Of a stretch of DNA of 24,000 nucleotides, positions 3,581-23,374 are shown in pieces. The notes below the pieces were generated by a model. It had not been told where the DNA came from. It saw only the letters and a list, made by a program, of their open reading frames with translations, and ran no database searches. The stretch spans positions 4,769-28,768 of the forward strand of contig JBAQMJ010000015.1 in NCBI GenBank assembly GCA_049302695.1. The letters are read 5' to 3'. Every line of letters begins with the position of its first letter. Position 1 is the first letter of the stretch. This DNA comes from Minisyncoccales bacterium. Its GTDB lineage: Bacteria > Patescibacteriota > Minisyncoccia > Minisyncoccales > Minisyncoccaceae. The position numbers and the translations under genes were made by a program.

Positions 3581-3609
3581 TTGACATTACCATTCAATAG
3601 TTTTAAAAT
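3581..3609 (+). promoter_or_regulatory. sigma70-type promoter of the 3638-8117 operon
   Basis: TTGACA (3581-3586), a 17-nt spacer, then TAAAAT (3604-3609). It lies inside the longest-ORF extension and so argues for the ATG at 3638. Confidence 0.55.
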
Positions 3610-3637
3610 AAAGATAATAAAAAATAAAATATATAAT

Positions 3638-5809
3638 ATGTTGAAAAAATATTCATCCGCATGTAGAAGGATAATCCTTTGTTTCACTTTTTCAATTTTA
3701 TTTTTAGTTGGAGGGTTGAACATTGCTTTTGCCCAAACTTCTTTACCGACCGCCGGGAACAGTTTTAGTTCGGCGGTTTTATTATCTCCAGGAGAATATC
3801 AGGGCGGGCACCTTGATGACTCGCAGGTTCTCTATTATTCCATTTCTGTCAAGCCGGGGCAAAAAATCAGCGTCGAGGCTAGTTCTTTTGACGAAGCTGG
3901 ATGTTCAATGTATCTTTATAGTTCAGGACAGGAAGAATTAATATCTTCTTATGACGAGAATCCCAAAGTTAGCTGGCTAGCAGGAACTAGTGGCTCTTCA
4001 GGTTATTATTTAAAGATAGAGAACGATCATGCGGAAATAGCTTCGTTTACCGTAAAAGTTTCTGCGACAAATTATTATGATGCCGGTAGTCAGACCGATG
4101 CTGGCGATACTTTTGATAGGGCCTTGACTGTTGGCACAGGGACGTATAGCAGCTATTTGGCTGGTAATGCCTACATTACTTCAGTGTCAGGCGACGATGC
4201 TCAAGATATATATAAGGTTTCACTTAAAAAAGGAAGTACTTACAGTTTTAAATTGAGTCCGTCCTCAAAAACGGAATTGACTTTAAGTCTTTACGACATT
4301 AACAAGCAATTGATCGAGGAAGATGCCTCGGCGAATAAAGGAGCGGCAGTTTCATTGTCTTTAACTCCCGCAGCCGACACTTATGTTTACATATCGGCTC
4401 TTAATGAATTTTATGCTTATCAGGAAGAAATCGTTAATTATACTTTAGAAATAAAAACGTCGGTTCCTTTAACGAAGTTTTATAGTTGCGCTGATGATTA
4501 TTGCGGATATGTCGGAGAGTTTGCTTCATTGTCGGAATGCCAGTCATCTACAACTAAAACCTGTTATACGTCTTCCACTTGTAATGGAGTCTGCTCGGGC
4601 GGAGGAGTCGAGGGCTGTATTAAAAGTTCTGATTGTCCGATAAACAATACTTGCATGGCCGGTCAATGTATTCCCGAAGAATTGCCTGTTTGCGAGGATG
4701 AATGCAGTGCTGATCAGACTAAGTGTTTTGATAATTTTAATTATTATAAATGCGGAGATTTTGACAGTGACAATTGTTTAGAATGGTCTACTCCAGCTTA
4801 TTGCGGAGAGGGAAATAAGTGCCAAGGAGAAAAATGTTCCAAATCTTCTGGCGGGTGCATGTGTTCAGCTTGGGTGGGGACCGAGTGTGGAAGTGGTGAA
4901 TGTGGAAGCGATAAAATTTTTCAAACAAGAACCTGTACTCCGCAAAGTTGCGATATAACAGAACAATGTTTGAGTGCTTCTTCGTGCGGAATTATACCGC
5001 CTCCTCCCGATGGCGGAGACAACTCATTTGAGGTATTTTTAACATTTTTAGGAACGCTTCCGGTCTGGAGCTGGTTTTCCGGCTGGTATTTATTGCTATG
5101 GATAGTCTTCTATGCTTATTTAGCTTTTTGTCTGCAGATATTGGCTCAGAGAACCAATACACCTAATAGCTGGCTGGCATGGATTCCAATCGGCAATATT
5201 TTTCTGATGATAAGTATCGCTCAGAAGCCGATGTGGTGGATTTTATTATTTTTGATTCCGCTGGTTAATATCGTCATAGCTGTAATTATTTGGATGGCGA
5301 TTTCCGAGCGAAGAGGGAAGCCGAATTGGTTGGGAATTTTAATTCTTATTTCTCCCATTAATCTGTTCATTATCGGATACTTAGCATTCTTTGATTATAA
5401 AAGCAATGGAAAGATAGAGCCCACTCCTCCTTATGCTCCGACGGGTACGGAAGCGGCCGATAAACCGACTGTGGGATACAAGCATCTTTGCAAATATTGC
5501 GACAAATTAATTCCTCCAGATTCCGTTGTTTGTCCTTTCTGTGAGAAGGTGAATCCTTTGGGTCCATCTCGCTGTCCGAAATGCCACGAACCGATTGAAA
5601 AGGAATGGAAGGTGTGTTCAAAGTGCAATTTGAATCTCCGTATTATTTGTCCTTTTTGCGGAAAAACAACTTTTTTTGGAGAGCATTGCGAAGACTGTGG
5701 AGCCCGTTTGATGGTTATTTGTCCTAATTGCAATCAAGAACAGCCGCCACTTGGCGACAATTGTATGAAATGCGGGAAATCTTTAACTTCAAAAGAAAAA
5801 AATAAGTAA
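3638..5809 (+). CDS. mosaic envelope protein: signal peptide + 2 PPC-like beta-sandwich domains + 26-Cys module + DUF5684-like polytopic membrane module + 4 C-terminal zinc ribbons
   Basis: Signal peptide MLKKYSSACRRIILCFTFSILFLVGGLNIAFA|Q. Two PPC-type units (AGNSFSSA...YYSISV...GYYLKIEN...FTVKVS and AGDTFDRA...DIYKVSL...YTLEIK). 26 Cys in 167 aa (nt 4487-4987), followed by a PPPP linker. Hydrophobic block at nt 5027-5395 with WLAWIPIGN...PMWWILLFLIPLVNIV...GKPNWLG. Four CxxC-x10-11-CxxC ribbons at nt 5489-5773. The ORF track start at 3572 is less likely. Confidence 0.85.
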   Translation: MLKKYSSACRRIILCFTFSILFLVGGLNIAFAQTSLPTAGNSFSSAVLLSPGEYQGGHLDDSQVLYYSISVKPGQKISVEASSFDEAGCSMYLYSSGQEELISSYDENPKVSWLAGTSGSSGYYLKIENDHAEIASFTVKVSATNYYDAGSQTDAGDTFDRALTVGTGTYSSYLAGNAYITSVSGDDAQDIYKVSLKKGSTYSFKLSPSSKTELTLSLYDINKQLIEEDASANKGAAVSLSLTPAADTYVYISALNEFYAYQEEIVNYTLEIKTSVPLTKFYSCADDYCGYVGEFASLSECQSSTTKTCYTSSTCNGVCSGGGVEGCIKSSDCPINNTCMAGQCIPEELPVCEDECSADQTKCFDNFNYYKCGDFDSDNCLEWSTPAYCGEGNKCQGEKCSKSSGGCMCSAWVGTECGSGECGSDKIFQTRTCTPQSCDITEQCLSASSCGIIPPPPDGGDNSFEVFLTFLGTLPVWSWFSGWYLLLWIVFYAYLAFCLQILAQRTNTPNSWLAWIPIGNIFLMISIAQKPMWWILLFLIPLVNIVIAVIIWMAISERRGKPNWLGILILISPINLFIIGYLAFFDYKSNGKIEPTPPYAPTGTEAADKPTVGYKHLCKYCDKLIPPDSVVCPFCEKVNPLGPSRCPKCHEPIEKEWKVCSKCNLNLRIICPFCGKTTFFGEHCEDCGARLMVICPNCNQEQPPLGDNCMKCGKSLTSKEKNK

Positions 5810-5820
5810 AAATAAAAAAT

Positions 5821-6489
5821 ATGTCTTTACAACCTTTTACAGACAATTTTGCTGACAATTCCACTAATGCTGGATTTCAGTTCACCTTTTTTTGCGCCGT
5901 TTGCAAGGAAGGATACAAAACTGCGTTTATCGAAGCCAAATCAACCAAAAAGGGAAAATTTCTTGAAATGGCTGGAGGTCTTTTCGGTGCAGCGGCTCAG
6001 ATGGCTGGAAAATATAATGTTGGTTACGGAATTGAAAAGGTGACAGATGTAATTACGGGCCGACACGAGGGCATGTCGCCAGAATGGCGTAAAGAATATG
6101 ATGTGGCTTTCGAGCAGGCTCAGACCGAGGCCAAAGCTCATCTTCATCGCTGTCCAAAATGTACCCAGTGGGTTTGCGAAAATTGTTGGAACGAACAGGA
6201 AAATTTGTGCGTGAGTTGCGCACCGAGAGAAGCAGTTGAGGTAGCGTCATCCAGAGCCAAGAAGAAAATTCAGGATATAGCGGCCAAGGTGGCTGGTACC
6301 CAGGTTTTTACCGGTGAAATTGAATCAAAACAGACATTGTGTCCCGCTTGCGGAAAACCAGCTGGAACTGGCAAATTCTGCGTTAATTGCGGGGCTGGTT
6401 TGGAATTCAAAAAATGTCCCAAATGCGGAGCTAAAAATCCGGCCGGTACGGGATTTTGTGGCAATTGCGGAGAAAAAATGAAGAAATAA
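5821..6489 (+). CDS. cytoplasmic multi-zinc-ribbon protein (function unknown)
   Basis: No TM or signal peptide. Metal motifs are CAVC; a CPKC..CENC..CVSC cluster; then two ribbons, CPACG..CVNCG and CPKCG..CGNCG. Starts 11 nt after the upstream stop. Confidence 0.8.
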   Translation: MSLQPFTDNFADNSTNAGFQFTFFCAVCKEGYKTAFIEAKSTKKGKFLEMAGGLFGAAAQMAGKYNVGYGIEKVTDVITGRHEGMSPEWRKEYDVAFEQAQTEAKAHLHRCPKCTQWVCENCWNEQENLCVSCAPREAVEVASSRAKKKIQDIAAKVAGTQVFTGEIESKQTLCPACGKPAGTGKFCVNCGAGLEFKKCPKCGAKNPAGTGFCGNCGEKMKK

Positions 6490-6492
6490 AAT

Positions 6493-6774
6493 ATGGAAGA
6501 AGCAATTTTTGTCCCCCAAAATATATTCAAGGTTGCCGGAAAAGGCTTAATTATATCAGGTTCTCTTAAAAGCGGAGTCTTAAGATTAGGAATGGTGGCT
6601 GAGATAAAAAAGCAGAAAATACCTTTAATCGGGATAGAAGCATTCAATCAGAAAGCGGATGAAATTAAATTAACAGATTCGGCTGCAAAGCAGTTTGGGA
6701 TAGTTTTGCCAGAAGCCGCTGGAGAATTTTTAAATTCCATTGGTAAAGAAATAATTTTTACAGAATCAAAATAA
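6493..6774 (+). CDS. stand-alone translation-factor domain-II-like beta-barrel (EF-Tu D2-like), 93 aa
   Basis: VPQNIFKVAGKGLIISGSLKSGVLRLGMVAEI aligns without gaps to E. coli EF-Tu [32 protein letters not shown] (from memory), sharing the G..G...G....G..G..EI pattern. The following IGIEAFNQK matches TGVEMFRK. Starts 3 nt after the upstream stop. Confidence 0.7.
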   Translation: MEEAIFVPQNIFKVAGKGLIISGSLKSGVLRLGMVAEIKKQKIPLIGIEAFNQKADEIKLTDSAAKQFGIVLPEAAGEFLNSIGKEIIFTESK

Positions 6775-6776
6775 TT

Positions 6777-8117
6777 ATGGATAAACAAGATTTTAACAAC
6801 GACCAAATAAAAGAAAGTCTTTCGGCGTTGCAGAAATTTGCTTCGGTTCAGCCAAGTGATAACAAAGAGGAAAAGAAGAAGAAAAAAAAGAAAGAGCCGA
6901 GTGTTATTTCAGAAGCCAGTGGGGTGTGTATTTTGACCGACGGGTCTGGAAATGAGGTTGAGTCGGGCCAAGCAAAATTTGTTCTTGATGAAGAAAAGAT
7001 TTCCATTCTTTCAGAGAAAGGCCAGGCCACTCCTTTATTATTGAGAGACATTAGTGAGTTTATCGCCGAGGATTTTAAAATCAATTTGTTTCTTATCGGT
7101 GGAGGAAAAGCAGTGCTTTCTGAATTGGGATATCAATATGAAGACTTTGTTAGAGTTTTAAACAAACTCCGTCACGAAATATCTCAAAAGGAACTTTTAA
7201 TGAAAGAGGGGGGAATTAAAGGGAGCTATAAGGGAAGCTACAGTTATCGAAAAGGAGGAGAAGAAGAATCGGGAGAAGCGGAGGTTGAAGTCTCCGACAC
7301 GGGATTAGTGATAAAACCGAAACAAGGGAACTTGATCAGGGTTTCTTATGCTGAAATAGAGGATTTTTCCAATAAAGACTATGAGATATTAATTATTGCC
7401 GAATCGTTTGAGGTTTTATTATCTGGTTTTGGAGAATATTTTGATTCTTTAAATAATGCGATAAAGGAATCGTTGAATGAATTATCTTTAAAAACTCAGT
7501 CTATTCTTAAGGAGTTTTTGCCAGAACTAGATCCTTTGACTGTTAAAAAAGCAAGCGAGCTTTTGAGGGATGGCCAGGCGGTGAGCCGAGAAAAGATTGA
7601 TAAAGTTTCGTCATCAATCTGGGCGGGATTGGAGAAAAAATTGGCAATTCTGGAAATAAAAGAATCATATGACTATCTGATGTCTTTATCAAAAAACAAG
7701 CAGGTTTTCTTTGGAATCAAACGCGATCTAATGGGAGATTTAACAGGTGAATACGTTTGGTTTTTAATGCCAGTGAATTCCCAAAAGGGCAATAATTTCA
7801 TTGTCATGGAAGCGGCTTCAACTATAGAAGGTGGAGGTAAGGCCACATATTTTTTTAAGATTTCCGAAAAAGAAGATATAGACGAGCTAGTTAAGAAAAT
7901 AAATCGTTGCATGATTGCCATAAATTTCAGGCGGGAACCTATATATCTTAAAGCTGAAGATTTGGAAAAGCCAGAGTATTTGAAATACAAAACAGCCGTT
8001 AGCAGAATTCCTGAATTGAAACTCATTCGTCAACTTTTTGTCGGACGGGTTGTTCACGCTTCTCCGGAAGAATGGAAAGAGAACGTAAATAATCTTATGG
8101 CTGCTGAATCAAATTAA
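6777..8117 (+). CDS. hypothetical 446-aa protein with poly-K N-terminus, tandem PH-like duplication and an unassigned C-terminal domain
   Basis: Starts 2 nt after the upstream stop. Two colinear repeats, aa 63-131 (SGQAKFVL...ISEFIAEDFKINL...LSELGYQYEDF) and aa 165-233 (SGEAEVEV...IEDFSNKDYEILI...LSGFGEYFDSL). No enzyme motif recognised. Confidence 0.8.
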   Translation: MDKQDFNNDQIKESLSALQKFASVQPSDNKEEKKKKKKKEPSVISEASGVCILTDGSGNEVESGQAKFVLDEEKISILSEKGQATPLLLRDISEFIAEDFKINLFLIGGGKAVLSELGYQYEDFVRVLNKLRHEISQKELLMKEGGIKGSYKGSYSYRKGGEEESGEAEVEVSDTGLVIKPKQGNLIRVSYAEIEDFSNKDYEILIIAESFEVLLSGFGEYFDSLNNAIKESLNELSLKTQSILKEFLPELDPLTVKKASELLRDGQAVSREKIDKVSSSIWAGLEKKLAILEIKESYDYLMSLSKNKQVFFGIKRDLMGDLTGEYVWFLMPVNSQKGNNFIVMEAASTIEGGGKATYFFKISEKEDIDELVKKINRCMIAINFRREPIYLKAEDLEKPEYLKYKTAVSRIPELKLIRQLFVGRVVHASPEEWKENVNNLMAAESN

Positions 8118-8258
8118 TTGAAAAATTAATGACATAGATTCAAGTCGCTATTTATAGCCAGCTTTTGCTTTAGCTTATGTTTTTGGGCACTTTTGGTTAT
8201 TATTTTGATTTAGCAAAAATTATCTATCAATAAATCAAGAATTATCTGTTTTTAATAA

Positions 8259-8894
8259 TTGAAATTGTTGCCAATTTTAATTGTATTAATTTATATGCAG
8301 AATATAATGACAAAAATTGATAGGATAGCTTCGTGGATTCTGTTTATTACGATTATACTTTATGCCATCACTGGATATGGCATGACTAAGGGTCTGATTG
8401 ATTCCAATTTTTCTCGTACGTGGCATCTGGGATATCTGGGAGTTATCGGCTTGATTGCTTTTGTCATTCATACTTCATGGGCTGCACATCTATCCTTAAA
8501 GAGGAAAAACATTTGGAATGTTTATACAAAATCATTATTAGTTATTTTTTATCTATCTTTGATTTTTTTCTTTTGTTTTATGCAATTTTTCTATCAAGAA
8601 TCAAAAAGCAAAGAAATCGATCATCCAAAAACTACAATAGAGAATTCTGGAACATCTATTGATATAATAACAACTGTTTTTACAGCAGAAACTCTTAAGC
8701 AATACAATGGATTAAATGGACAGCCGGCATATATAGCTGTTGATGGTATCGTCTATGACGTATCGAGTCTTTTTGTGAATGGACAGCATTATGGATGCAA
8801 CGCAGGACAAGATGTAACAGATGAATTTGATGGCGAAAGAAGGCATAACGACAACATACTGGAAGGGTATACGGTAGTCGGAACCTATGAATAA
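8259..8894 (+). CDS. membrane-anchored cytochrome b5-like heme/steroid-binding (MAPR/COG4892-like) protein
   Basis: The C-terminus FTAETLKQYNGLNGQPAYIAVDGIVYDVSSLFVNGQHYGCNAGQDVTDEF matches the cyt-b5-like domain pattern. The N-terminal half has 3-4 TM helices with conserved His residues. The start is ambiguous: TTG 8259, ATG 8295 or ATG 8307. Confidence 0.75.
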   Translation: MKLLPILIVLIYMQNIMTKIDRIASWILFITIILYAITGYGMTKGLIDSNFSRTWHLGYLGVIGLIAFVIHTSWAAHLSLKRKNIWNVYTKSLLVIFYLSLIFFFCFMQFFYQESKSKEIDHPKTTIENSGTSIDIITTVFTAETLKQYNGLNGQPAYIAVDGIVYDVSSLFVNGQHYGCNAGQDVTDEFDGERRHNDNILEGYTVVGTYE

Positions 8895-8915
8895 TCTGTT
8901 TGTATTTTTTATTTG

Positions 8916-8924
8916 TGATATAAT
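8916..8924 (+). promoter_or_regulatory. extended -10 box (TGaTATAAT)
   Basis: Exact TGnTATAAT, 17 nt upstream of the ATG at 8942. Confidence 0.5.
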
Positions 8925-8941
8925 CTTCTTAAGATTAAATT

Positions 8942-9391
8942 ATGAATAAATATCCATTATCTCCTAAGGTATTTTTTGATATATACAGCAAAGTCCCACG
9001 TCTTTGTGTTGATTTGGTGATAAAATCTAATGAAGGGATTTTGCTTGCCAAGAGATCAATCGAGCCGTGCAATGGCTTTTGGCATTTGCCTGGCGGAATG
9101 ATTTTTAAAAAAGAAAAAATAGCTGATGCAATTTTGAGGGTGGCAAAAGAAGAAACGGGATTAGCTGTAAAGCCAAAGAAACTCCTTGGACATATAGAAT
9201 TTTTAAACGAAGTTCGTTCAAATACGGATATTAGGTTCCATAGTGTAAGTATTGCAATGGAAGTTAAGCCTATGAGTAATGATTTTAGTCCAGATGAGAA
9301 CGCTAGCGAACTTAAGTATTTTAAAAAGTTACCTAGTAAGATGATAAAGGAGCAAAAAGAGTTTTTGAAAACAATTTATTCAAACATTTAA
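8942..9391 (+). CDS. Nudix hydrolase (GDP-mannose mannosyl hydrolase/WcaH-like)
   Basis: Nudix box GGMIFKKEKIADAILRVAKEETGL (Gx5Ex7R..xEExG). The N-terminal VPRLCVDLVI...GFWHLPGG resembles the NudD/WcaH subfamily. Confidence 0.85.
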   Translation: MNKYPLSPKVFFDIYSKVPRLCVDLVIKSNEGILLAKRSIEPCNGFWHLPGGMIFKKEKIADAILRVAKEETGLAVKPKKLLGHIEFLNEVRSNTDIRFHSVSIAMEVKPMSNDFSPDENASELKYFKKLPSKMIKEQKEFLKTIYSNI

Positions 9392-9416
9392 ATCGGCTTT
9401 TGCCGATTTTTTGTTT
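9391..9416 (+). terminator. Rho-independent terminator
   Basis: AATCGGC-TTTT-GCCGATT (7-bp stem) followed by TTTTGTTT. It overlaps the Nudix stop codon. Confidence 0.8.
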
Positions 9417-9417
9417 G

Positions 9418-9426
9418 TGGTATAAT
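9418..9426 (+). promoter_or_regulatory. extended -10 box (TGgTATAAT)
   Basis: Exact TGnTATAAT directly after the terminator, 47 nt upstream of the ATG at 9474. Confidence 0.55.
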
Positions 9427-9473
9427 CAAAAGCATGATAAGGATTCATATAGAGTATAATAAATAATTAAATT

Positions 9474-10355
9474 ATGGAAAAAGTAGCTGTTATTGTTTGT
9501 AATTTTGCCTCAATTAATGATGAGACTATTAATAAGTATGGTATTGTTCCGATAATTTCTCAGCCATACTGGCCAGAGGAGAGTTCTTTAATTGGTGACA
9601 ATATCTTTCAAAAGATGAGGGATGCGCGCAAGAAAGGGATAAAATCAAGCCCTAAAACTTCTCAACCTTCTTTGGGAACTTTTAAGAAATATTTTGAAGA
9701 GGCGCTGAAGAATAACAATGAGGTTATTTGTATAACGATAAGTTCCAAGATATCGGGAACGTATAATGCCGCATTGCAGACTAAAAAGCTATTCAGTCCA
9801 GAAATTCAAAATAAAATACATATAATAGATTCTAATAATATTGATGCAGCAGAAAGCCTTTTAGCTATTAAGGCGTTTGAAATAATCAAGCAAGAAAATG
9901 ATATTGAAAAAATAATCAATATTGTCAGCTCGTATATTCCCAAGACATATTTCTATGGAATGACTGAGAACCCTGATCAAATGGAGGCTGGAGGAAGGAT
10001 AAGTCATGTCTTGGCGGTAGTTCTTTCTCAAATGCAAAAGCTGGGGATGAGGCCGATATTGCACATGGACGATGGGGTTGTTAAAGCAGCTAATCTTAAA
10101 ATGAATGCTAAAGATATTGCTGAAGCATTATTTAAACAGTTTGAAGATTTAAATAAAGAGTCATTGTCTAAAGGGAAGACTTATAGGGTTGCAATCAGCC
10201 ATGCAGACAATATTGCTGGCGCTGAAAAACTGAAATCTTTGTTTGAAAGCAAATATCCTTCTCAGGTTAAAATTGATTTTATAAGCATGACAGGTGTCTT
10301 TATTGGTTCCCACGTTGGTCCGGGAACTTTAATGTGTTGTACTCTAGAAGAATAA
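9474..10355 (+). CDS. DegV-family fatty-acid-binding protein
   Basis: Hallmark ITISSKISGTYNAA, plus HIIDSNN and the C-terminal HVGPGTL. The 293-aa length is typical. Confidence 0.9.
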   Translation: MEKVAVIVCNFASINDETINKYGIVPIISQPYWPEESSLIGDNIFQKMRDARKKGIKSSPKTSQPSLGTFKKYFEEALKNNNEVICITISSKISGTYNAALQTKKLFSPEIQNKIHIIDSNNIDAAESLLAIKAFEIIKQENDIEKIINIVSSYIPKTYFYGMTENPDQMEAGGRISHVLAVVLSQMQKLGMRPILHMDDGVVKAANLKMNAKDIAEALFKQFEDLNKESLSKGKTYRVAISHADNIAGAEKLKSLFESKYPSQVKIDFISMTGVFIGSHVGPGTLMCCTLEE

Positions 10356-10359
10356 AACA

Positions 10360-10830
10360 ATGAACAAGTACGTTTTTCCATATCAAGAGCAATTAGATAG
10401 AATAAAAAGATTAAAAGAAGAGATTGATCGTTTTTCAGTTGCTTCTGATGAAAACTTCAAAAGCGCTGTTGATGCTTTCACTTCATTTTTTATACAATGC
10501 TATCATTTGCGTGATTGGCTGGCTGAAAGCAGGTACAGCAGGAGAGATATAGATATTTTTGTTTCTGAAAGTCCATGGCTTTCTCTTTGCAAAGATTTAG
10601 CTAATAAGCAGAAGCACAAGAATATAGACAAGTATGAACCGCAGAATCATTTAGTCGAACACAGTATTCTCGGACTAAAGACGCCGATTATTTCCTATTA
10701 CGATCCCACTAAAGATCAAAAAAGGTTCGGAGTGGATGTCGAAGAGTTCGGAACCTTAATAGACGTAATCGAATTATCAGAAAGATGTATTGAGGAGTGG
10801 CAGAGATTCTTGTATATATATTCAATATGA
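10360..10830 (+). CDS. hypothetical alpha-helical protein (156 aa)
   Basis: Starts 4 nt after the DegV stop, and its TGA overlaps the next ATG (ATGA at 10827-10830). Contains CKDLANKQKH, only loosely reminiscent of a HEPN Rx4-6H motif. No family assigned. Confidence 0.65.
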   Translation: MNKYVFPYQEQLDRIKRLKEEIDRFSVASDENFKSAVDAFTSFFIQCYHLRDWLAESRYSRRDIDIFVSESPWLSLCKDLANKQKHKNIDKYEPQNHLVEHSILGLKTPIISYYDPTKDQKRFGVDVEEFGTLIDVIELSERCIEEWQRFLYIYSI

Positions 10831-11507
10831 ACAATAAAAAAATAAAAATAGAAAAGGACGGTCCATATCATGTTTCAGGCGACATTCTATTAGAAAAAGA
10901 ATTTGTTACAGCTGATAACAATAACGATCCTTTGGATTGGAAGAAAGGAGAAAAATATCAGACGAAAGGAGAATACAGTCTTTGTCGTTGCGGAAAATCA
11001 GGCAATAAACCGTTTTGTGATGGAAGCCACGCGAAAGGATTTGATGGTGCGGAAACTGCGAGCAAAGAAAGCTATGCTAATCAGGCTGAAAAGATTTCTG
11101 GACCAGGGATGGATTTAATGGATGCTCCCAATTTATGTTCTGGGGGTAGGTTCTGTCATCGACATGGAGGAACTTGGAATCTTACCCAAAAATCAGATAA
11201 TCCTGAAGCAAAAAAGATTGCTATTGAAGAAGCTTGCAACTGTCCCTCTGGAAGATTAAAGGCAATTGATAAAAAGACAGGTCAGCCGATTGAGCCAAAC
11301 TTCCTTCCGGCTATTAGTGTTACCGAAGATGTTCCTGCGCAAGTTAGCGGACCTTTATGGGTAAAAGGAGGGATTCCAATAGAGTCTTCTGATGGTTCAA
11401 TTTACGAGCCAAGAAACAGGCAAACGATTTGCCGTTGCGGAAAATCACGCAACAAGCCTTTTTGTGACGGAAGCCATATAGGAAGCAGATTTGACGACAA
11501 AAAATAA
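10827..11507 (+). CDS. CDGSH iron-sulfur domain protein (two CDGSH motifs)
   Basis: CRCGKSGNKPFCDGSH (nt 10983-11030) and CRCGKSRNKPFCDGSH (nt 11430-11477), with a central Cys/His cluster (CSGGRFCHRHGG...CNCPSG). N-terminal KIEKDGPYHVSG. The ATG at 10827 is preferred over 10797 because of the ATGA overlap with the upstream stop. Confidence 0.9.
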   Translation: MNNKKIKIEKDGPYHVSGDILLEKEFVTADNNNDPLDWKKGEKYQTKGEYSLCRCGKSGNKPFCDGSHAKGFDGAETASKESYANQAEKISGPGMDLMDAPNLCSGGRFCHRHGGTWNLTQKSDNPEAKKIAIEEACNCPSGRLKAIDKKTGQPIEPNFLPAISVTEDVPAQVSGPLWVKGGIPIESSDGSIYEPRNRQTICRCGKSRNKPFCDGSHIGSRFDDKK

Positions 11508-11580
11508 GCCAAATATCTTTTCGTTTGCTTTTAAATCATATTTAGCCTATAATGAGCCCCACAGGTTAATATATATAAAT

Positions 11581-12213
11581 ATGAAAAACTTCAACAACAT
11601 TTTTGAAAACGAGAAAAGAAACGGAGCCAGAGAAAGTGATTTTAAAAGAATGAAACCAGAAAGAAGAGAATTTAGCAATGATAGAGATAGAGAAAGACCT
11701 CAAATGCATGAGGCTGTTTGTAGTGATTGCGGCAAGAGATGCGAGGTTCCTTTCAGACCAACTGGCGATAAGCCCGTTTATTGCAGCCAGTGTTTTACAT
11801 CTCACGGAGGAGCTTCATCTTCAGATAGGTCAGACAGAAGGGGAGGAAGAGAAAGACCGAGATTCCAAGATAAAAGAATGTTTGACGCAACTTGTGCTAC
11901 TTGTGGAAAAAGATTTGAACTTCCTTTCAGGCCAACTGGAGAAAAGCCTGTTTACTGCAATGAGTGTTTTGACAGGGGAGGTAATGCTCCTACTACAGTT
12001 AAGAGCAATGTAAGCAATGAGCAATTCGAAATGTTGAATGCAAAGCTTGATAGAATCATTAAGGTTTTAATTCCTGTCGTTGCAGTAAAAGAAGAAAAGA
12101 AACCGGTGGTTGTTGAAAAGAAAGAAATTGTAATTGAAAAGAAAGAGAAAGCAAAAAAATCCAAAGTAGCAGCAAAGAAAGTCGTTGTTAAAAAGAAGAA
12201 AGCCAAAAAGTAG
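11581..12213 (+). CDS. tandem CxxC-x17-CxxC zinc-ribbon protein with polybasic C-terminal tail
   Basis: CSDCGKRCEVPFRPTGDKPVYCSQCF (nt 11719-11793) and CATCGKRFELPFRPTGEKPVYCNECF (nt 11893-11967). The tail is KKEKAKKSKVAAKKVVVKKKKAKK. The ATG at 11581 is preferred over the TTG at 11491, which lies inside the CDGSH gene. Confidence 0.8.
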   Translation: MKNFNNIFENEKRNGARESDFKRMKPERREFSNDRDRERPQMHEAVCSDCGKRCEVPFRPTGDKPVYCSQCFTSHGGASSSDRSDRRGGRERPRFQDKRMFDATCATCGKRFELPFRPTGEKPVYCNECFDRGGNAPTTVKSNVSNEQFEMLNAKLDRIIKVLIPVVAVKEEKKPVVVEKKEIVIEKKEKAKKSKVAAKKVVVKKKKAKK

Positions 12214-22085: not shown

Positions 22086-22114
22086 TTGACAAAATGCGAA
22101 AAATATAATATAGT
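22086..22114 (+). promoter_or_regulatory. sigma70-type promoter upstream of the DEAD-box helicase
   Basis: TTGACA (22086-22091), a 17-nt spacer, then TATAGT (22109-22114). Confidence 0.5.
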
Positions 22115-22186: not shown

Positions 22187-23374
22187 ATGCAAACAAGAAG
22201 ATTTTCAAAAAACAATAGAGCTGGAAGAAAACCGGCATTTAGAAGAGGAGCCCCTCAAAGAAGAAGTGGTTTTTCTGCTTCTAAAATAGATATTTCTAAA
22301 TTAATCCAAAAGAGCACTTTTGTTGAAGAAGATGTCTATACTCCCGCTCATCAATTTGCTGATTTTAAAGTAGATAGCAGGTTGAAGAGCAATATTATTC
22401 GCAAGGGATATAAGGATCCTACTCCGATTCAAGACAAAATCATTCCTTTGATTTTAGAAGGAAGGGATGTTGTTGGTATTGCTAATACTGGAACAGGAAA
22501 AACTGCTGCTTTTTTAATACCAGCGATCAACAAGACTCTTTTGAATAAAAGCAATAAAACTATTATTATTGCTCCAACTAGAGAGCTAGCTTTTCAAATA
22601 GAAACAGAGTTTAGAGATTTTACCACTGGCATGCATTTGTATTCCATTATTTGTGTTGGAGGAACAAGCATGAGAGATCAGATGTTCAAGATGAGAAGAG
22701 GATATGACTTTGTTATCGGAACTCCTGGAAGAATTAAAGACTTGGTTCAGAGAAATGCTTTGGATATGAACAGATTCCAAACAATAGTTCTAGATGAAGC
22801 AGATAGAATGCTTGATATGGGCTTTGTCGATGATATGAGATTTTTAATGGAAAAGATGCCAGCTAATAAGCAGGCTCTGCTTTTTTCAGCTACCATTCCC
22901 GATGAAATAGAAAAGCTTTCTAGGAAGTTTTTAAAGAATCCAGAAAAAGTTTCAGTTAAAGTCAGGGAATCTTCAGCCAATGTCGATCAGGACGTGATCA
23001 AGGTGGGAGATAAAAACAAGATAGATATTTTATGCGATCTTTTGAAAAAGGAAGAATTCAGCAAAGTTCTTATCTTTGGAAAAACTAAGCACGGAGTAGA
23101 AAAGCTTTCTAAAACTTTAGTTCAGAAAGGATTTAAATCAGACTCAATCCATGGGAACAAAACGCAATCAAACAGAAAGAGAGCAATTGATTTCTTTAAG
23201 GGAACTCAAGGAAAGATATTGGTGGCTACAGATATAGCAGCCAGAGGCTTGGATATTGATAATATTAGCCATGTTATCAACTATGATATGCCCGCTACCT
23301 ATGAAGACTATGTTCACAGAATTGGAAGAACTGGCAGAGGAAGAAAAAAAGGAAAAGCCATTACTTTTGTTTAA
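22187..23374 (+). CDS. DEAD-box ATP-dependent RNA helicase
   Basis: Q motif (FADF...PTPIQ), motif I ANTGTGKTAAF, Ia PTRELA, Ib TPGR, II DEAD, III SAT, V ARGLD and VI HRIGRTGR. It has an Arg-rich N-terminal extension. Confidence 0.95.
   Translation: MQTRRFSKNNRAGRKPAFRRGAPQRRSGFSASKIDISKLIQKSTFVEEDVYTPAHQFADFKVDSRLKSNIIRKGYKDPTPIQDKIIPLILEGRDVVGIANTGTGKTAAFLIPAINKTLLNKSNKTIIIAPTRELAFQIETEFRDFTTGMHLYSIICVGGTSMRDQMFKMRRGYDFVIGTPGRIKDLVQRNALDMNRFQTIVLDEADRMLDMGFVDDMRFLMEKMPANKQALLFSATIPDEIEKLSRKFLKNPEKVSVKVRESSANVDQDVIKVGDKNKIDILCDLLKKEEFSKVLIFGKTKHGVEKLSKTLVQKGFKSDSIHGNKTQSNRKRAIDFFKGTQGKILVATDIAARGLDIDNISHVINYDMPATYEDYVHRIGRTGRGRKKGKAITFV

Follow-up and report, generated by a model that had tools for sequence, protein, structure and literature searches.

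Two described systems lie closest to the locus reported here. FACT is a histone chaperone that holds basic histones via acidic surfaces, and its Spt16 middle and Pob3/SSRP1 middle domains, like BBS5, contain double PH modules. The ESCRT adaptors, such as yeast Vps36 (GLUE plus NZF) and the Asgard ESCRT protein Znr_PH_CC_SB (bioRxiv 10.1101/2024.02.06.579148), combine a PH-like domain with a zinc ribbon and consist of binding domains only. Here, we analyze a four-gene operon (p1 to p4) in a 24,000-nucleotide stretch of DNA, the window, from a Minisyncoccales bacterium of the candidate phyla radiation (CPR, or Patescibacteria; GenBank assembly GCA_049302695.1, contig JBAQMJ010000015.1, positions 4,769 to 28,768). 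The core of the operon is p4, a protein of PH-like domains; p2, which joins a treble-clef module to zinc ribbons; and a four-zinc-ribbon protein that in most lineages is a free-standing product of about 110 amino acids (aa), called Zn110, and in the window is the tail of p1. We propose, with a probability of roughly 0.55, that the operon represents a Paceibacteria version of an undescribed, horizontally moving three-protein module that acts as a cytoplasmic complex and is tethered to the membrane here. That the cassette exists and is one functional unit is much more certain than this overall picture, and its specific target is much less certain.

How the cassette compares with known systems differs from part to part. 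Residues ~45 to 247 of p4 have the double-PH modules of FACT and BBS5 as their best structural match, and the likeness to FACT includes charge, as the PH pair of p4 is acidic and the partners encoded with it are basic. The identity of p4 to the FACT modules is only 8 to 14%, however, TM-scores are low owing to a different domain orientation, and p4 carries an unrelated C-terminal domain of ~200 aa in a family that is prokaryotic and apparently horizontally mobile. Moreover, p4 has no sequence match in Pfam or the PDB, and no histone genes occur in 80 neighborhoods of p4 homologs, so that a FACT-type histone chaperone was rejected. All neighborhood results refer to the best 80 of 343 p4-positive loci, in which open reading frames (ORFs) were called and searched with p1 to p4, and 77 of which contained p4. 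The ESCRT adaptors share with the cassette both the kinds of module and the restriction to binding domains, but in the cassette the modules reside on separate proteins and the hosts are mostly bacteria and non-Asgard archaea. An ESCRT-type system was likewise rejected, as none of the 80 neighborhoods encoded Vps4, an ESCRT-III (Snf7/PspA-family) protein, a steadiness box, or a pair of winged helices. Finally, DZR/Zn_Ribbon_1 and DUF5684, the families matched by parts of p1 and p2, are generic and neither define the cassette nor include p4.

The system was not found in Pfam, NCBIfam, PADLOC, PHROGs, the PDB, viral contigs, or plasmids, and literature searches returned no description of the cassette, with the Asgard ESCRT study as the sole parallel in theme. 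A first-pass annotation of the window, made from the sequence alone, had claimed that no described system combines these parts, and the libraries and literature searched agree. As a system, the cassette appears to be new, made of known kinds of domain and one orphan domain.

Spread and linkage of the core genes

Relatives of p4 are present in 343 of about 185,600 genomes, each representing a single GTDB species, and span dozens of bacterial and archaeal phyla. Bacterial carriers include Paceibacteria, Saccharibacteria, Chloroflexota, Acidobacteriota/Aminicenantes, Actinomycetota, Bacillota, Elusimicrobiota, Planctomycetota, Nitrospira, Spirochaetota, WOR-3, and Fermentibacteria, and archaeal carriers include Thermoplasmatota, Bathyarchaeia, Nitrososphaerota, and Asgard groups. 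One locus labeled Gammaproteobacteria (L008) looks CPR-like.

The genes for p4, Zn110, and p2 travel in company. A p2 homolog (~222 aa, E values of 1e-72 to 1e-130) and a Zn110 of ~110 aa were found in 62 of the 77 p4 loci, and of the 32 loci in which p4 was flanked on each side by 3 kb or more, 30 had all three together. The order was p4, Zn110, p2 in 47 loci and Zn110, p2, p4 in 14 (Paceibacteria and some archaea). The gap between Zn110 and p2 has a median of 13 nucleotides (nt) and is at most 50 nt in 51 of 56 cases; the p1-p2 gap in the window is 11 nt. The tail of p1 is homologous (E values of 1e-33 to 1e-47) to free-standing proteins of 105 to 136 aa that adjoin p2 and p4 homologs in other phyla, and these proteins match p1 only at residues ~613 to 716. 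The first-pass idea that the zinc-ribbon tail recruits other proteins is supported by this gene neighborhood, in which the tail homolog is encoded beside the p2 and p4 homologs. The same annotation had treated all four genes as a unit. That claim holds for the p1 tail, p2, and p4, whose homologs are colocalized in related genomes, and it fails for p3 and for the ectodomain and membrane block of p1, which are not conserved partners. Because the set is highly conserved in hundreds of species and dozens of phyla and no description of it was found in the libraries and literature searched, it would amount to a substantial area of prokaryotic biology still to be explored rather than an isolated orphan.

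The cassette apparently moves horizontally as one unit, including between archaea and bacteria. Median identity is 0.49 for p4, 0.65 for p2, and 0.62 for Zn110; the corresponding values are 0.49, 0.63, and 0.62 between archaea and bacteria and 0.49, 0.67, and 0.64 within bacteria. The best archaeal-bacterial pairs reach 0.78 to 0.84, p2 is 64 to 84% identical across phyla, and several archaeal cassettes, on contigs of 47 to 281 kb, have bacterial nearest neighbors. Clustering of neighboring ORFs in the 80 loci found no flanking family common across phyla, and apart from the three core families, only two recurred, one with a FecR domain and one with DUF4352. The pairwise distance matrices of p4, p2, and Zn110 correlate with one another (r of 0.47 to 0.69). 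Transfer as a unit is indicated because identity across the two domains of life equals that within bacteria, the flanks are unconserved, and the distances are correlated. Such transfer of an intact unit restricts what the function can be, and all three genes are under very strong purifying selection. Codon composition is consistent with an acquired core and a native p3: GC content at third codon positions is 0.365 in p1, 0.395 in p2, and 0.353 in p4, which is 2 to 3 standard deviations above the 0.299 ± 0.029 of 20 other genes in the window, and that of p3 (0.277) is host-like. The cassette was not found in IMG/VR (2.9 million viral contigs), INPHARED (50,697 phage records), or PLSDB (72,556 plasmids).

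Some cassettes have conspicuous neighbors. Thermospira aquatica (CP073355; cassette locus L084, 6033 to 13702) is a named species with a complete genome and thus offers a route to experiment. Its cassette is bordered by small HTH_23 ORFs on one side and an rve-family integrase gene on the other, beside the rimP-nusA-infB operon, and the region is a possible island. In a Saccharicenans metagenome-assembled genome (MAG; L001, 5827 to 6836), an IS630-like gene with HTH_23/28/29/32 matches is directly upstream of p4, and the contig ends after p4. A small membrane gene of the MamF_MmsF family is found 2.5 to 6 kb from the cassette in two unrelated genomes (L089, 339 to 737; L091, 10235 to 10582), which may be a coincidence.

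The core proteins and their variable partners

In the p4 protein, two PH-like domains are followed by a C-terminal domain that is an orphan (Table 1). An AlphaFold2 model scored a predicted local distance difference test (pLDDT) value of 84.9 and a predicted TM-score of 0.78, with residues 45 to 247 near a pLDDT of 90, and in it each PH-like unit has seven strands and a C-terminal helix. Double-PH modules were the best PDB matches of the model by Foldseek (E values of 5e-7 to 1e-4). The two units are homologous by hhalign (probability of 98.9%, E value of 3e-17), and by that profile comparison they are true duplicates. Model, structure search, and profile comparison thus agree with the duplicated PH-like unit and orphan C-terminal domain reported at first pass. 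The C-terminal domain, ~200 residues of helical/beta structure in the model, is the most conserved part of p4 and holds about three-quarters of its invariant columns, yet it has no sequence match in Pfam or the PDB even at an E value of 10. Neither did p4 as a whole match Pfam, NCBIfam, PADLOC, PHROGs, or the PDB by sequence-profile search, and Foldseek against viral structures gave nothing meaningful. The protein has no cofactor motif and no conserved Cys. An exact copy is recorded from a Minisyncoccales MAG, and none of 687 homologs has a Pfam family.

Several candidate identities for parts of p4 were rejected. Long homologs (594 to 723 aa) carry C-terminal extensions, one of which resembles DUF4352 by eye; they are not p2-p4 fusions, and no fusion of core subunits was found. 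The beta-meander of the C-terminal domain is not a third PH domain (hhalign probability below 1%). By inspection only, the secondary structure of the model and the residue spacing disagree with GGGKAT as a Walker-A motif and with the C-terminal beta-sheet as a PD-(D/E)xK fold.

The p2 protein is rich in zinc-binding motifs. Conserved Cys pairs are at residues 25/28, 111/114, 119/122, 130/133, 174/177, 187/190, 199/202, and 213/216; four pairs belong to the N-terminal region and the rest to the two C-terminal ribbons. Family members have 14 to 16 Cys in CPxCG-like knuckles, as in Zn110, and the C terminus of p2 is basic (pI of 9.2). DZR was matched at 32.1 bits (cutoff of 27.3), and by all 26 p2 relatives, which upholds the first-pass view of a soluble protein that repeats the zinc-ribbon theme. 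Residues 105 to 134 scored 21.7 bits against Prok-RING_2 (PF14445), just below the cutoff of 22.4, and at an E value below 0.01 6 of the 26 family members matched Prok-RING_2 and four matched zf-HIT. The four N-terminal pairs could make a cross-braced, two-metal site like that of Prok-RING_2 and other binuclear treble clefs, but the match is subthreshold and many members have Asp at two of the eight ligand positions. No genes for ubiquitin-like, E1, E2, or JAB proteins occur near the cassette in the 80 neighborhoods. A PDB sequence-profile search with p2 found nothing past zinc ribbons, and Foldseek of a p2 model against the PDB gave no significant match at the model's pLDDT of 67. A Gly/Ala-rich segment at residues 45 to 79 (positions 5953 to 6057; GGLFGAAAQMAGKYNVGYG) is conserved across phyla, has a pLDDT below 50, and looks glycine-zipper-like or partner dependent.

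The p1 protein is a membrane-anchored form of Zn110. Hydropathy predicts a signal peptide, ~450 aa outside, three transmembrane segments (residues 485 to 503, 530 to 548, and 567 to 585), and the tail inside. Residues 512 to 583 match DUF5684 (PF18936; 45.8 bits, E value of 1e-11, cutoff of 27.4), and the tail matches DZR (PF12773; 32.8 bits, cutoff of 27.3). The two PPC-like repeats are subthreshold for PPC (PF04151; cutoff of 25.9), with repeat 2 at 22.2 bits and repeat 1 at 15.1 bits (E values of 3e-4 and 0.045), and are detected as an internal repeat at an E value of 0.017. No Pfam family matched the Cys-rich module that follows. The ectodomain as a whole is acidic (pI of 4.2), and Zn110 is basic (pI of 8.9, net charge of +8.5) and packs 16 Cys into ~100 aa. 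The layout drawn at first pass, of two PPC domains, a Cys-rich module, a membrane block, and four zinc ribbons, is retained, but the module has 24 rather than 26 Cys and the PPC assignment stays below threshold. Surface exposure with a cytoplasmic zinc-ribbon tail agrees with the predicted topology.

Anchoring is a CPR trait. Membrane-anchored Zn110 was seen in CPR genomes only, with either a single transmembrane segment (154 to 211 aa in all) or a DUF5684 block that in some forms is joined to an ectodomain (470 to 725 aa); the ectodomain and the DUF5684 block of p1 were seen in CPR/Paceibacteria genomes only. A homolog search with the zinc-ribbon tail returned 10 proteins, among them transmembrane-anchored CPR forms, and the p1-like protein of another locus (L090) also matches DUF5684. 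In most sampled lineages, all three core proteins are soluble and the cassette encodes no membrane partner.

A second variable part is an accessory slot, usually between p4 and Zn110. It holds a FecR-domain protein in 20 loci, a protein with a DUF4352 C terminus in 9, and a CsgG/FlgO-like lipoprotein in T. aquatica. The accessory of the window is p3, which in its Paceibacteria clade is placed between p2 and p4. A profile of 22 p3 relatives aligned to residues 215 to 320 of EF-Tu in the PDB (E value of 9e-20), p3 alone matched the NCBIfam EF-Tu family at an E value of 3e-3, and the EF-Tu fragment 5i4q was its second-best PDB match. Thus p3 is, as first proposed, essentially only EF-Tu domain II; unlike EF-Tu, it lacks the GTPase domain (domain I) and domain III, and it was rejected as a translational GTPase. 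The p3 family is small and consists of proteins of 85 to 145 aa, some of which, including several of 129 to 145 aa, have a hydrophobic anchor at the C-terminal end. One relative carries a precomputed PF03144 match and sits in an unrelated gene context, and a 1690-aa protein (P0250) has four separate stretches that resemble p3, as EF-Tu domain II-like repeats. Within the cassette, p3 was found in 5 of the 80 loci, all of them Paceibacteria-like, and other CPR cassettes lack it. Every accessory part that could be recognized is a binding domain, and no enzyme is recognizable in the system, unless the C-terminal domain of p4 is one.

Proposed working and alternatives

How the three proteins might act together is suggested by charge, conservation, and distribution. 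We propose that p4, Zn110, and p2 form one cytoplasmic complex in which the acidic PH pair of p4 (pI of ~4.5) docks on the basic ribbon arrays of Zn110 and of the p2 C terminus, because the charges are complementary. An invariant pocket rich in Arg, Glu, Tyr, and His in the C-terminal domain of p4 is probably the working site. The module would be either self-contained or directed at a universal target, for example nucleic acid or the translation machinery, rather than at lineage-specific machinery, because near-identical cassettes apparently function in archaea and diverse bacteria. In CPR, the zinc-ribbon subunit would have gained a membrane anchor, and the genome studied here would have added the PPC-like/Cys-rich ectodomain of ~450 aa, such that the p1 tail, at the inner membrane face, would be the assembly site of the complex and an outside cue could be coupled through the ectodomain to the cytoplasmic module. 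The fusion of a zinc-ribbon subunit to a surface Cys-rich protein suggests that, in CPR, a conserved cytoplasmic module is connected with the cell surface. Attachment to other cells is common among CPR organisms, and a surface link would be relevant to them. The p3 protein may be a lineage-specific adaptor and points weakly to translation. More tentatively, the triad may be a new self-contained machine, made of binding modules and exchanged between archaea and bacteria, that controls or protects nucleic acids or the translation apparatus, accepts swappable adaptors, and is wired to the surface in CPR; we regard this broader version as possible and somewhat doubtful.

Some observations weigh against the three-protein cytoplasmic complex. 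A Thorarchaeota locus (L074) that extends 8 kb to either side of p4 has neither partner, and three further loci, one from an unclassified Patescibacteria MAG (L071) and two from Saccharibacteria MAGs (L082 and L083), have p4 with a FecR-family gene and without Zn110 or p2 in the available flank. Perhaps p4 sometimes works without the zinc proteins, or its partners may be encoded elsewhere. Moreover, most source genomes are MAGs, and some taxonomic labels may thus be binning errors. The AlphaFold2 model of p2 is mediocre, and the link to translation is weak, coming only from a lineage-specific accessory.

Other readings of the cassette account for parts of the evidence. An anti-phage or conflict module would have the core sense an invader and the accessories tune specificity, with the C-terminal domain of p4 or the glycine-rich segment of p2 as effector and p3 as decoy or bait. 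The patchy distribution, cross-domain transfer, unconserved flanks, and variable slot would suit such a module, as would the insertion sequence- or integrase-like genes that adjoin the cassette in T. aquatica and in the Saccharicenans MAG and the match of p3 to an EF-Tu fragment. The T4 Gol peptide of Lit exclusion binds EF-Tu at domains II and III, and some CdiA toxins use EF-Tu. No match to PADLOC-DB v2.0.0 (E value below 0.05) or PHROGs was found for any of the four proteins, however, and no nuclease, NADase, protease, pore, or NTPase is recognizable. Moreover, p2 is ~65% identical across domains of life, far above expectation for immune genes, the contexts examined contain housekeeping neighbors and no defense islands, the viral contigs, phage records, and plasmids searched lack the cassette, and p3 is missing in nearly all cassettes. 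We consider a conflict module unlikely, and the first-pass suggestion of defense with an EF-Tu decoy finds no direct support in the library searches, the viral and plasmid collections, or the unusually high conservation. The trans-envelope system favored by the same annotation would place attachment or outside-in signaling at the heart of the locus, with proteins 2 to 4 as the cytoplasmic output. The signal peptide, large acidic ectodomain, three transmembrane segments, and cytoplasmic tail of p1 argue for it, other CPR genomes likewise anchor the zinc-ribbon subunit, and a lipoprotein gene is inserted in the T. aquatica cassette. Most sampled lineages, however, encode a soluble Zn110 and no membrane or exported component. 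Because of this, the membrane and ectodomain parts of p1 appear to be a late, lineage-specific fusion onto an older cytoplasmic module. A trans-envelope function may be right for the local deployment, but as the nature of the system it is improbable.

Two further readings fare poorly. If the cassette served metal handling or redox chemistry in anaerobes, Zn110 and p2 would use their seven or eight Cys4 sites to bind iron in rubredoxin-like fashion or to buffer zinc, and p4 would be a regulator or partner. The density of Cys in CPxCG-like knuckles fits, and the names and sources of the hosts, as we read the records, suggest anoxic sediments, groundwater, and digesters. Pfam returns zinc-ribbon families and no rubredoxin match, however, the non-Cys residues are conserved as well as the Cys, unlike in metal buffers, p4 has neither cofactor motif nor conserved Cys, and no oxidoreductase is among the conserved neighbors; we consider this reading very unlikely. 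That the four genes are unrelated and adjacent by chance agrees with the absence of p3 and the N-terminal two-thirds of p1 from the conserved partners. For the p1 tail, p2, and p4, however, chance is refuted by their co-occurrence in nearly all informative loci, in both domains of life, and with correlated divergence, and the probability left to it overall is negligible. Among these readings, we favor the horizontally moving cytoplasmic module, anchored to the membrane in this lineage.

Operon layout and surroundings

The arrangement of the operon was largely as first annotated. The ORF coordinates (Table 1) agree with four packed plus-strand genes, with gaps of 11, 3, and 2 nt between p1 and p2, p2 and p3, and p3 and p4, and the claimed single good promoter matches the sigma-70 consensus at 11 of 12 positions, which has a chance of ~2% in the 293-nt upstream spacer. 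Three 11/12 sites occur in the window against 1.0 ± 0.9 expected; the remaining two are at 258 to 286 (before the gene at 334) and 22086 to 22114 (before the gene at 22187), both on the plus strand. Because all such sites immediately precede plus-strand genes, sigma-70-like promoters appear to be real features of this CPR genome. The longest p1 ORF, from 3572, contains the promoter. A real start at the ATG at 3638 (MLKKYSS..., then the signal peptide) is plausible because the promoter falls inside the longer ORF and a signal peptide follows the ATG, and it leaves a 28-nt leader. The claim that internal terminators are absent holds at the gene junctions, none of which has a terminator-like site. 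Three weak plus-strand matches lie within p1, and the regional total of 8 is not above chance (4.3 ± 2.2 expected). The 141-nt spacer after p4 was measured as claimed to the next listed ORF (8259, TTG start), the start of which is called ~36 nt later on an identical contig. No Rfam match, to a riboswitch or to any other RNA, was obtained upstream of the operon or elsewhere in the window.

Table 1. Positions of the operon, its domains, and the T. aquatica cassette
Feature	Position	Strand	Basis or remark
Window
p1 ORF	3572/3638-5809	+	ORF list of the window
Sigma-70-like promoter, TTGACA-17-TAAAAT	3581-3609	+	11/12 consensus match; best site of the region
p1, 723 aa, membrane-anchored form of the cassette zinc-ribbon subunit	3638-5809	+	Pfam, hydropathy
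p1 predicted extracellular region, aa 31-297, two PPC-like beta-sandwich repeats	3728-4528	+	Subthreshold Pfam PPC
p1 predicted extracellular Cys-rich module, aa 298-484, 24 Cys	4529-5089	+	Cys count
p1 membrane block, aa 485-600, three transmembrane segments and DUF5684	5090-5437	+	Pfam, hydropathy
p1 predicted cytoplasmic tail, aa 608-723, four zinc ribbons (16 Cys), equivalent to core subunit Zn110	5459-5806	+	Homology
p2, 222 aa, split treble-clef/RING-like zinc module and two C-terminal zinc ribbons	5821-6489	+	ORF list; core subunit
p3, 93 aa, EF-Tu domain II beta-barrel, lineage-specific accessory	6493-6774	+	ORF list; family profile against PDB
p4, 446 aa, tandem PH-like domains and orphan C-terminal domain	6777-8117	+	ORF list; core subunit
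p4 PH-like domain 1, aa 45-139	6909-7193	+	Model, Foldseek; pI 4.6
p4 PH-like domain 2, aa 149-247	7221-7517	+	Model, Foldseek; pI 4.5
p4 C-terminal domain, aa 250-446	7524-8114	+	Motifs LTGEYxWF, GGGKATYFF, NFRREPIY
T. aquatica, L084
p4	7361-8692
CsgG/FlgO-like lipoprotein	8732-9634
Zn110	9654-9983
p2	10001-10675

The other genes of the window are ordinary and encode TetR, MFS, alpha/beta hydrolase, cytochrome-b5-like, Nudix, DegV, CDGSH, ABC-type ATPase, and MacB-type pump proteins. A 240-aa protein (11491 to 12213) has two zf_Tbcl_2 treble-clef zinc fingers (E value of 2e-32) and a long Lys-rich tail, and is unrelated in sequence to the cassette. The gene at 10360 to 10830, whose 156-aa product has no Pfam family, is followed by one (10827 to 11507) for a protein with two zf-CDGSH domains and a Fer4_19 mono-cluster domain.

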